From: Escherichia coli
GTDB taxonomy: Bacteria > Pseudomonadota > Gammaproteobacteria > Enterobacterales > Enterobacteriaceae
Strand: one strand, 5' to 3'
DNA length: 5,355 bases
Assembly (NCBI RefSeq): GCF_003334255.1
Contig: NZ_QOWU01000105.1
A program made the position numbers and the translations under genes. Below the pieces are notes generated by a model. It had not been told where the DNA came from and made no database searches. It saw only the letters and a list, made by a program, of their open reading frames with translations. Positions 2,366 through 2,814 of this stretch are shown piece by piece. Each line of letters opens with the position of its first letter. The first letter of the stretch is position 1.

Positions 2366-2468
2366 ACAGGGGGCCAGCCTGTTGCCGATTTTTCATCCAA
2401 TGATGCTTTCACCAGGCGGCACTAACCCGGACGTAGACTGTATTACAAAAGCGGCAAAAAGCAGAGAC

Positions 2469-2494
2469 AAAAAACCCCCGCTTTGCAGCGAGGG
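2469..2494 (-). terminator. Rho-independent terminator downstream of tRNA-Ala
   Basis: Read on the minus strand: CCCTCGC tgcaaa GCGGGGG followed by TTTTTTGTCTCTGCTTTTT. This is a GC-rich 7-bp stem with one mismatch, then a U-tract, starting about 10 nt after the tRNA 3' CCA. It also insulates the pdeA promoter region from tRNA read-through. Confidence 0.5.
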
Positions 2495-2503
2495 TTGGAA
2501 ATT

Positions 2504-2579
2504 TGGTGGAGCTAAGCGGGATCGAACCGCTGACCTCTTGCATGCCATGCAAGCGCTCTCCCAGCTGAGCTATAGCCCC
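2504..2579 (-). tRNA. alaW: tRNA-Ala (anticodon GGC), 76 nt with encoded CCA
   Basis: Reverse complement of 2504..2579 is GGGGCTATAGCTCAGCTGGGAGAGCGCTTGCATGGCATGCAAGAGGTCAGCGGTTCGATCCCGCTTAGCTCCACCA. It has a 7-bp acceptor stem with the G3:U70 wobble pair (the AlaRS identity element), a D-arm GCTC/GAGC, anticodon stem CTTGC/GCAAG with loop ATGGCAT (anticodon GGC), a T-arm with GGTTCGATCC, and a 3' CCA. It matches E. coli alaW/alaX-type tRNA-Ala(GGC) from memory. Only one copy is present, so the alaW versus alaX name is arbitrary. Confidence 0.95.
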
Positions 2580-2611
2580 GTCACGTAAAGCTTGTCGAGT
2601 TGACGGGCGGC

Positions 2612-2640
2612 ATCATATGAATTCCGCCCGAATGTGTCAA
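2612..2640 (-). promoter_or_regulatory. Stable-RNA-type sigma70 promoter for tRNA-Ala (TTGACA - 17 nt - TATGAT, with GC-rich discriminator)
   Basis: Reverse complement of 2612..2640 reads TTGACA cattcgggcggaattca TATGAT, followed by GCCGCCC. That is a perfect consensus -35, 17-nt spacer, 5/6 -10 and the GC-rich discriminator typical of stringently controlled rRNA/tRNA promoters. The predicted start is about 25 nt upstream of the mature tRNA 5' end at 2579. Confidence 0.55.
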
Positions 2641-2750
2641 CGGCAAATTGCAACGTGTAGTTTCAATCGCTGAAAAATCAGGCAAATGAACAATTTTGGA
2701 AAACCGCTCGCATTCAGTAGTTATTCATGTCACGGTTTCCTGTAAAGTGG

Positions 2751-2759
2751 TGTTATAAA
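2751..2759 (+). promoter_or_regulatory. Candidate extended -10 promoter element for yfeC-yfeD (TGtTATAAA)
   Basis: Plus-strand 2751..2759 reads TG t TATAAA, an extended -10 (TGn + 5/6 match to TATAAT), about 55 nt upstream of the yfeC ATG. There is no good -35 at 16-18 nt spacing, which an extended -10 can tolerate. Sequence match only. Confidence 0.3.
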
Positions 2760-2814
2760 ATGAACTACTAATAGACCCACATACATTCAGGGAATTGTTA
2801 TGTTCAAGGAGAGG

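Follow-up and report, generated by a model that had tools for sequence, protein, structure and literature searches.

A one-copy alaW-alaX allele in Escherichia coli, probably produced by loss of one 115-bp tandem tRNA-Ala(GGC) unit

We analysed a 5,355-nucleotide stretch of the Escherichia coli contig NZ_QOWU01000105.1 (the window) and identified a one-copy allele of the alaW-alaX locus, most probably made by the loss of one 115-bp unit through misalignment of tandem repeats (probability about 0.85). The architecture of the deletion, its direction and its frequency in the population come directly from the data: an exact alignment to K-12, syntenic loci of related species and a survey of complete genomes. 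The window runs from an IS186 end through pdeA, tRNA-Ala, yfeC, yfeD and gltX to valU, and its features, along with those of the comparison loci, are listed in Table 1.

Table 1. Features of the window and of the syntenic loci compared with it.
Feature	Location or count	Strand	Basis or remark
tRNA-Ala(GGC) gene, sole copy at the site	2504..2579	-	ARAGORN; Rfam RF00005, 63 bits; K-12 identity
sigma-70 promoter, TTGACA-17-TATGAT	2640..2612	-	Consensus scan, 11/12; K-12 comparison
Leader, promoter to tRNA 5' end	2580..2611	-	Equals the leader of the promoter-proximal K-12 copy
Intrinsic terminator, 10-bp stem (6 G-C) and T run	2496..2473	-	Scan, fold
81-bp segment (tRNA and AAATT)	2499..2579		Perfect direct repeat in K-12, twice, 115 bp apart
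pdeA (yfeA)	106..2295	-	Downstream of the tRNA, same strand; K-12 annotation via exact alignment
yfeC	2800..3159	+	Divergent flank, synteny anchor; ORF list, annotation
tRNA-Val(UAC)	5279..5354	+	ARAGORN
IS186/IS421 element end	1..76		Window begins inside the element
IS200/IS605-family element	L003 3993..5633; L093 4450..6091		
Precise one-unit architecture as in the window	5/78 species		L006 (E. whittamii), L031, L042, L066, L070
One intact copy and one with a damaged 5' acceptor strand	1/78 species		L040
Three tRNA-Ala copies	1/78 species		L071

ARAGORN called two tRNAs in the whole window, one tRNA-Ala(GGC) and one tRNA-Val(UAC), and Rfam returned the identical two at its gathering threshold, with the tRNA-Ala gene scoring far above the RF00005 gathering score of 29. 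This agrees with the original prediction, which had described a single 76-nt tRNA-Ala(GGC) gene from the sequence alone. The anticodon is ggc (position 34), the CCA is encoded, and G3 lies opposite U70 in the acceptor stem, as read off GGGGCUA...UAGCUCCACCA. The G3:U70 acceptor-stem pair is an identity element for AlaRS, and the encoded tRNA would carry it. The gene had also been credited with a strong promoter and a terminator of its own, and both were found. The promoter is followed by a GC-rich discriminator (GCCGCCC) and is kept across the Enterobacteriaceae loci, and the strong terminator has a folding energy of -17.2 kcal/mol (z = -4.6); together they make up a predicted complete sigma-70 stable-RNA transcription unit.

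The predicted lack of a second tRNA in 2413..2799 held in every search made. ARAGORN made no further call there, and Rfam, run over 2296..2810 with its cut-off relaxed to E = 5, found no second tRNA, its other matches being sub-threshold and overlapping the terminator. The 39-nt inter-tRNA spacer of K-12 was not found in the window with 8 substitutions allowed. A hidden degenerate second tRNA or a spacer remnant in 2296..2810 was ruled out by the relaxed Rfam scan and the spacer search.

The closest known counterpart is the K-12 alaW-alaX operon (tRNA-Ala2, GGC), which shares the site, tRNA, promoter, leader and terminator with the window but has two genes where the window has one, the window being without the spacer and one copy (115 bp). 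Both MG1655 and W3110 carry two identical 76-nt tRNA-Ala(GGC) genes here, separated by a 39-nt spacer (period 115 bp), and the K-12 tandem pair named in the original prediction is therefore confirmed. The W3110 genome has both copies, against a published table in which only alaW is entered for this strain (PMC4678842). At the same pdeA-yfeC site, the window's gene is identical to both K-12 copies, alaW and alaX (76/76). Identity between the two K-12 repeats runs 5 nt (AAATT) past the tRNA on one side and 0 nt on the other. Taking exactly one 115-bp unit, a 76-nt tRNA and a 39-nt spacer, out of the K-12 sequence gives the window from position 55 to 5354 with zero mismatches. In the sense-strand comparison, the window's promoter is identical to that upstream of the promoter-proximal K-12 copy and its terminator to the one downstream of the terminator-proximal copy. 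The surviving gene takes its promoter and leader from the promoter-proximal copy and its trailer and terminator from the distal one. With 81 bp of perfect identity between the repeats, the crossover cannot be placed within that segment, and the recombination junction that alignment was expected to identify has no distinct sequence.

This architecture is what tandem-repeat contraction leaves: perfect direct repeats in the ancestral state and a one-period deletion without any other scar. The ancestral operon would have consisted of a promoter, leader, tRNA, 39-nt spacer, identical tRNA and terminator. Misalignment of its two identical 81-bp direct repeats, either by replication slippage, for which RecA would not be needed, or by unequal sister-chromatid exchange, would then remove one 115-bp unit and yield a monocistronic gene whose promoter and leader come from the alaW side and whose trailer and terminator come from the alaX side. 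The molecular route was most likely one of these two. Unequal exchange would give the same product as slippage, and at the level of sequence RecA-dependent exchange and slippage would look the same. In E. coli, close direct repeats of less than about 200 bp delete and expand without RecA, which fits slippage (PMC7063769); that study cites Bzymek and Lovett 2001 for RecA-independent short-repeat deletion. The 82-bp close repeats used there resemble the 81-bp repeats here, although they were carried on plasmids and engineered reporters, whereas alaWX is a chromosomal locus likened to them by analogy. The reciprocal expansion also occurs, with three or more copies in 50 E. coli genomes and both one- and three-copy states in other species, as expected for tandem-repeat misalignment. 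The loss of exactly one period, the expansion alleles and the recurrence described below together form the signature of this process.

We assessed copy number in 5426 complete E. coli genomes by searching for diagnostic junctions. E-value thresholds for the one- and three-copy counts were set from the bit scores of the junction search, and the one-copy cut-off is one that split alignments cannot pass. The tRNA-spacer-tRNA junction was present in 5292 genomes (about 97.5%), the contiguous leader-tRNA-trailer of the one-copy state in 133 (2.45%) and the spacer-tRNA-spacer arrangement of three or more copies in 50 (0.9%), which leaves about 5242 two-copy genomes (about 96.6%). The counts agree with one another, considering that the 134 genomes lacking the tRNA-spacer-tRNA junction (5426 - 5292) are the 133 one-copy genomes and one genome without a match. 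The small tRNA gene-dosage polymorphism anticipated by the original prediction is thus real. One-copy genomes span lineages and flank haplotypes (O157:H7, MC1061, OV2, BL21(RP), UMNF18, KO11FL and clone D i2), including two K-12 derivatives, MC1061 and OV2. EDL933 has one copy in three assemblies (CP008957, for which the reference is NZ_CP008957.1, CP120944 and CP124740), as do ATCC 43894 and strain 277, and with this agreement the one-copy state is reproducible and heritable. O157:H7 Sakai is listed with both genes (table in PMC4678842). Public one-copy genomes such as EDL933 (NZ_CP008957.1), UMNF18, KO11FL and MC1061 have the same leader-tRNA-trailer, 100% identical over a 196-nt diagnostic segment, in strain backgrounds other than the window's. 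Four complete genomes combine the one-copy state with the window's IS186 junction, and none of them is identical over the 5355 bases; the closest one-copy genome, PEC422, has 2 mismatches to the window, and no complete RefSeq E. coli genome matches it exactly. The one-copy allele is an ordinary recurrent variant that is not special to the window's strain. It is already present in annotated reference genomes and the kind of event is well known, and our literature search for alaW/alaX copy-number variation found no paper describing this locus. Separately, the 50-kb plasmid record NZ_CP098226.1 of strain Z0117EC0005 contains a chromosomal yfeC-tRNA-Ala-yfeD segment at 97% identity, which could be a captured chromosomal piece or a misassembly; the chromosome of this strain has three or more Ala copies.

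The best-surviving alternative is that the source strain has two copies and that the assembler collapsed the 115-bp tandem repeat, which we consider unlikely. Collapse would be helped by repeats that are perfectly identical over 81 bp, and no complete genome identical to the window is available as a parallel. The base at position 5355 raises the possibility that the tRNA-Val array next door is shortened too, and BL21(RP), whose one-copy call itself looks unreliable, has both arrays shortened. Array counts in public records can also look suspicious, as XL10-Gold, BL21(DE3) CP081489, BL21-RIPL and Rosetta2, all from one accession series, each show three copies. However, ordinary 150-nt reads, like any long reads, are long enough to cross a 115-bp repeat, and the one-copy state recurs in independent assemblies (the three of EDL933, ATCC 43894 and strain 277), in the 133 complete genomes and in 5 other species. 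Given this recurrence, the allele certainly exists in nature, and loss of a unit in the source strain is the reading we prefer.

The hint from the tRNA-Val array consists of a single base. Position 5355 of the window, directly after the tRNA-Val CCA, is C, a difference from all near-identical genomes. The base after valU is A in K-12, in E. coli C and in the four one-copy genomes closest to the window, and it is valX and valY that are followed by C. From this base, the Val array of the source strain may also be contracted or rearranged, and a second contracted array would fit either real instability or systematic collapse. The valU-valX-valY-lysV and glyVXY arrays resemble alaWX in being identical head-to-tail tRNA genes whose copy number varies; they encode other tRNAs, and the event in the window brings the Ala array to its minimum of one. 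For the glyV-Y array, E. coli is reported to have three or four copies (PMC4539685). Among species (outgroup loci L005-L084), the tRNA-Val(UAC) array has 2 to 5 copies, and it has 4 in E. coli strain 167 (L091). BL21(RP) has a valU/valX fusion together with its one-copy Ala allele. BL21(DE3) CP081489 (L092 6430..7154) has a single Val gene, beyond which the sequence is unrelated and contains RtT-like repeats; this suggests that a Val gene was the site of a rearrangement.

Some further observations concern insertion elements. The nupC terminator hairpin (GCCGGGGATAATTCCCCGG) is the insertion site of the IS186/IS421 element at the window start, with the target sequence GGGATAATTCCC duplicated. 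K-12 MG1655 and W3110 have an IS at the same spot in the orientation opposite to the window's, E. coli C and EC14 have it in the window's orientation, and the site is empty in BL21(RP), UMNF18 and strain 300490. Such a distribution suggests a hot spot into which insertion has occurred more than once. An IS200/IS605-family element (TnpB/InsQ and a partial tnpA) lies between yfeD and gltX in 21AR0303 and EDL933, and is absent from the window.

For the direction of change, YfeC was used as a synteny anchor to collect 80 loci from Enterobacteriaceae species representatives, 78 of which take in the upstream region. Two tRNA-Ala genes lie upstream of yfeC in 71 of these 78 species, including Escherichia albertii and members of Citrobacter, Salmonella, Klebsiella, Enterobacter, Kosakonia, Raoultella and Kluyvera. 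With the pair this widespread, two copies are ancestral and the window represents a loss. The pair also appears to be old, given that its two copies differ by 2 nt in some Enterobacter species. The other seven species are given in Table 1. Three loci had altered promoter-proximal copies. First, in Kosakonia sp. S29 (L040, about 2705..2780) this copy has GGGGCTA changed to TTGAGGT and no ARAGORN call; the damage is either another way for a locus to end up with a single functional copy or an error in sequencing. Second, in Escherichia sp. E1V33 (L008, 2705..2780) it is a tRNA-Ala(UGC) with 7 differences from the GGC gene and alaW-like flanks. We take its sequence to match the rrn-operon tRNA-Ala(UGC) of E. 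coli, and it suggests an origin by ectopic gene conversion and not by a point switch of the anticodon. Third, Citrobacter sp. NCU1 (L010, 2705..2780) likewise has a tRNA-Ala(UGC) there, with 6 differences from the GGC gene and alaW-like flanks. No tRNA-Ala(UGC) was found at the alaW position in the 5426 complete E. coli genomes.

Since the remaining tRNA and its transcription signals are intact, the loss would halve only gene dose. tRNA-Ala(GGC) decodes GCC and, through G:U wobble, also GCU, and the expected effect is roughly half the gene dose of this isoacceptor. The one-copy state should be well tolerated, as cmo5U-modified tRNA-Ala(UGC) can partly cover for loss of the GGC isoacceptor (PMC6103715). 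A comparable change of tRNA dose by gain or loss of repeat units is known from Pseudomonas fluorescens SBW25, but the duplications there are tens of kilobases or more and were selected after deletion of a tRNA gene, whereas the window has a 115-bp contraction in which selection is not evident (PMC7661048). It is quite improbable that the loss was adaptive, with alaWX copy number acting as an adjustable dosage switch under selection in certain niches. One- and three-copy alleles do both segregate, and one-copy genomes are over-represented in the more divergent flank haplotype: 67 of the 133 fall in the 95-99% identity band, as against 1253 of 5428 records with a longer query, a rough comparison drawn from different queries. 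Against this, although the locus is evidently unstable, about 97% of E. coli and about 91% of related species keep two copies, a pattern that fits stabilising selection together with recurrent variants that are neutral or mildly deleterious. The lists of one-copy genomes also show no association with a host or source. Least credible of all is that one copy is ancestral and that K-12 and most E. coli duplicated a second: the original prediction allowed for either a lost copy or a K-12 gain, and while its first option stands and unit duplication does happen (the three-copy alleles in 50 genomes), a gain is rejected, as the outgroup loci carry the pair at the same site in 71/78 species and one-copy E. 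coli are dispersed among relatives that have two copies and identical flanking sequence.

Loss of one unit from an ancestral pair, the reading we retain, implies no new biology and its significance is small. It does show that the dose of tRNA-Ala(GGC) genes ranges over one, two and three copies within E. coli while two are kept across the Enterobacteriaceae, and it serves as a reminder that assemblies can miscount short tandem tRNA arrays. The varying dose bears on models of tRNA pools and codon usage that assume K-12 gene counts. The persistence of two copies throughout the family despite instability suggests weak stabilising selection on dose. A broader and doubtful extension is that alaWX, and perhaps valUXY too, is an unstable dosage locus kept at two copies by stabilising selection, and that the source strain may have contracted both arrays; if so, the frequencies of about 2.5% one-copy and 0.9% three-copy genomes would reflect a high rate of slippage, even among laboratory K-12 and B derivatives.
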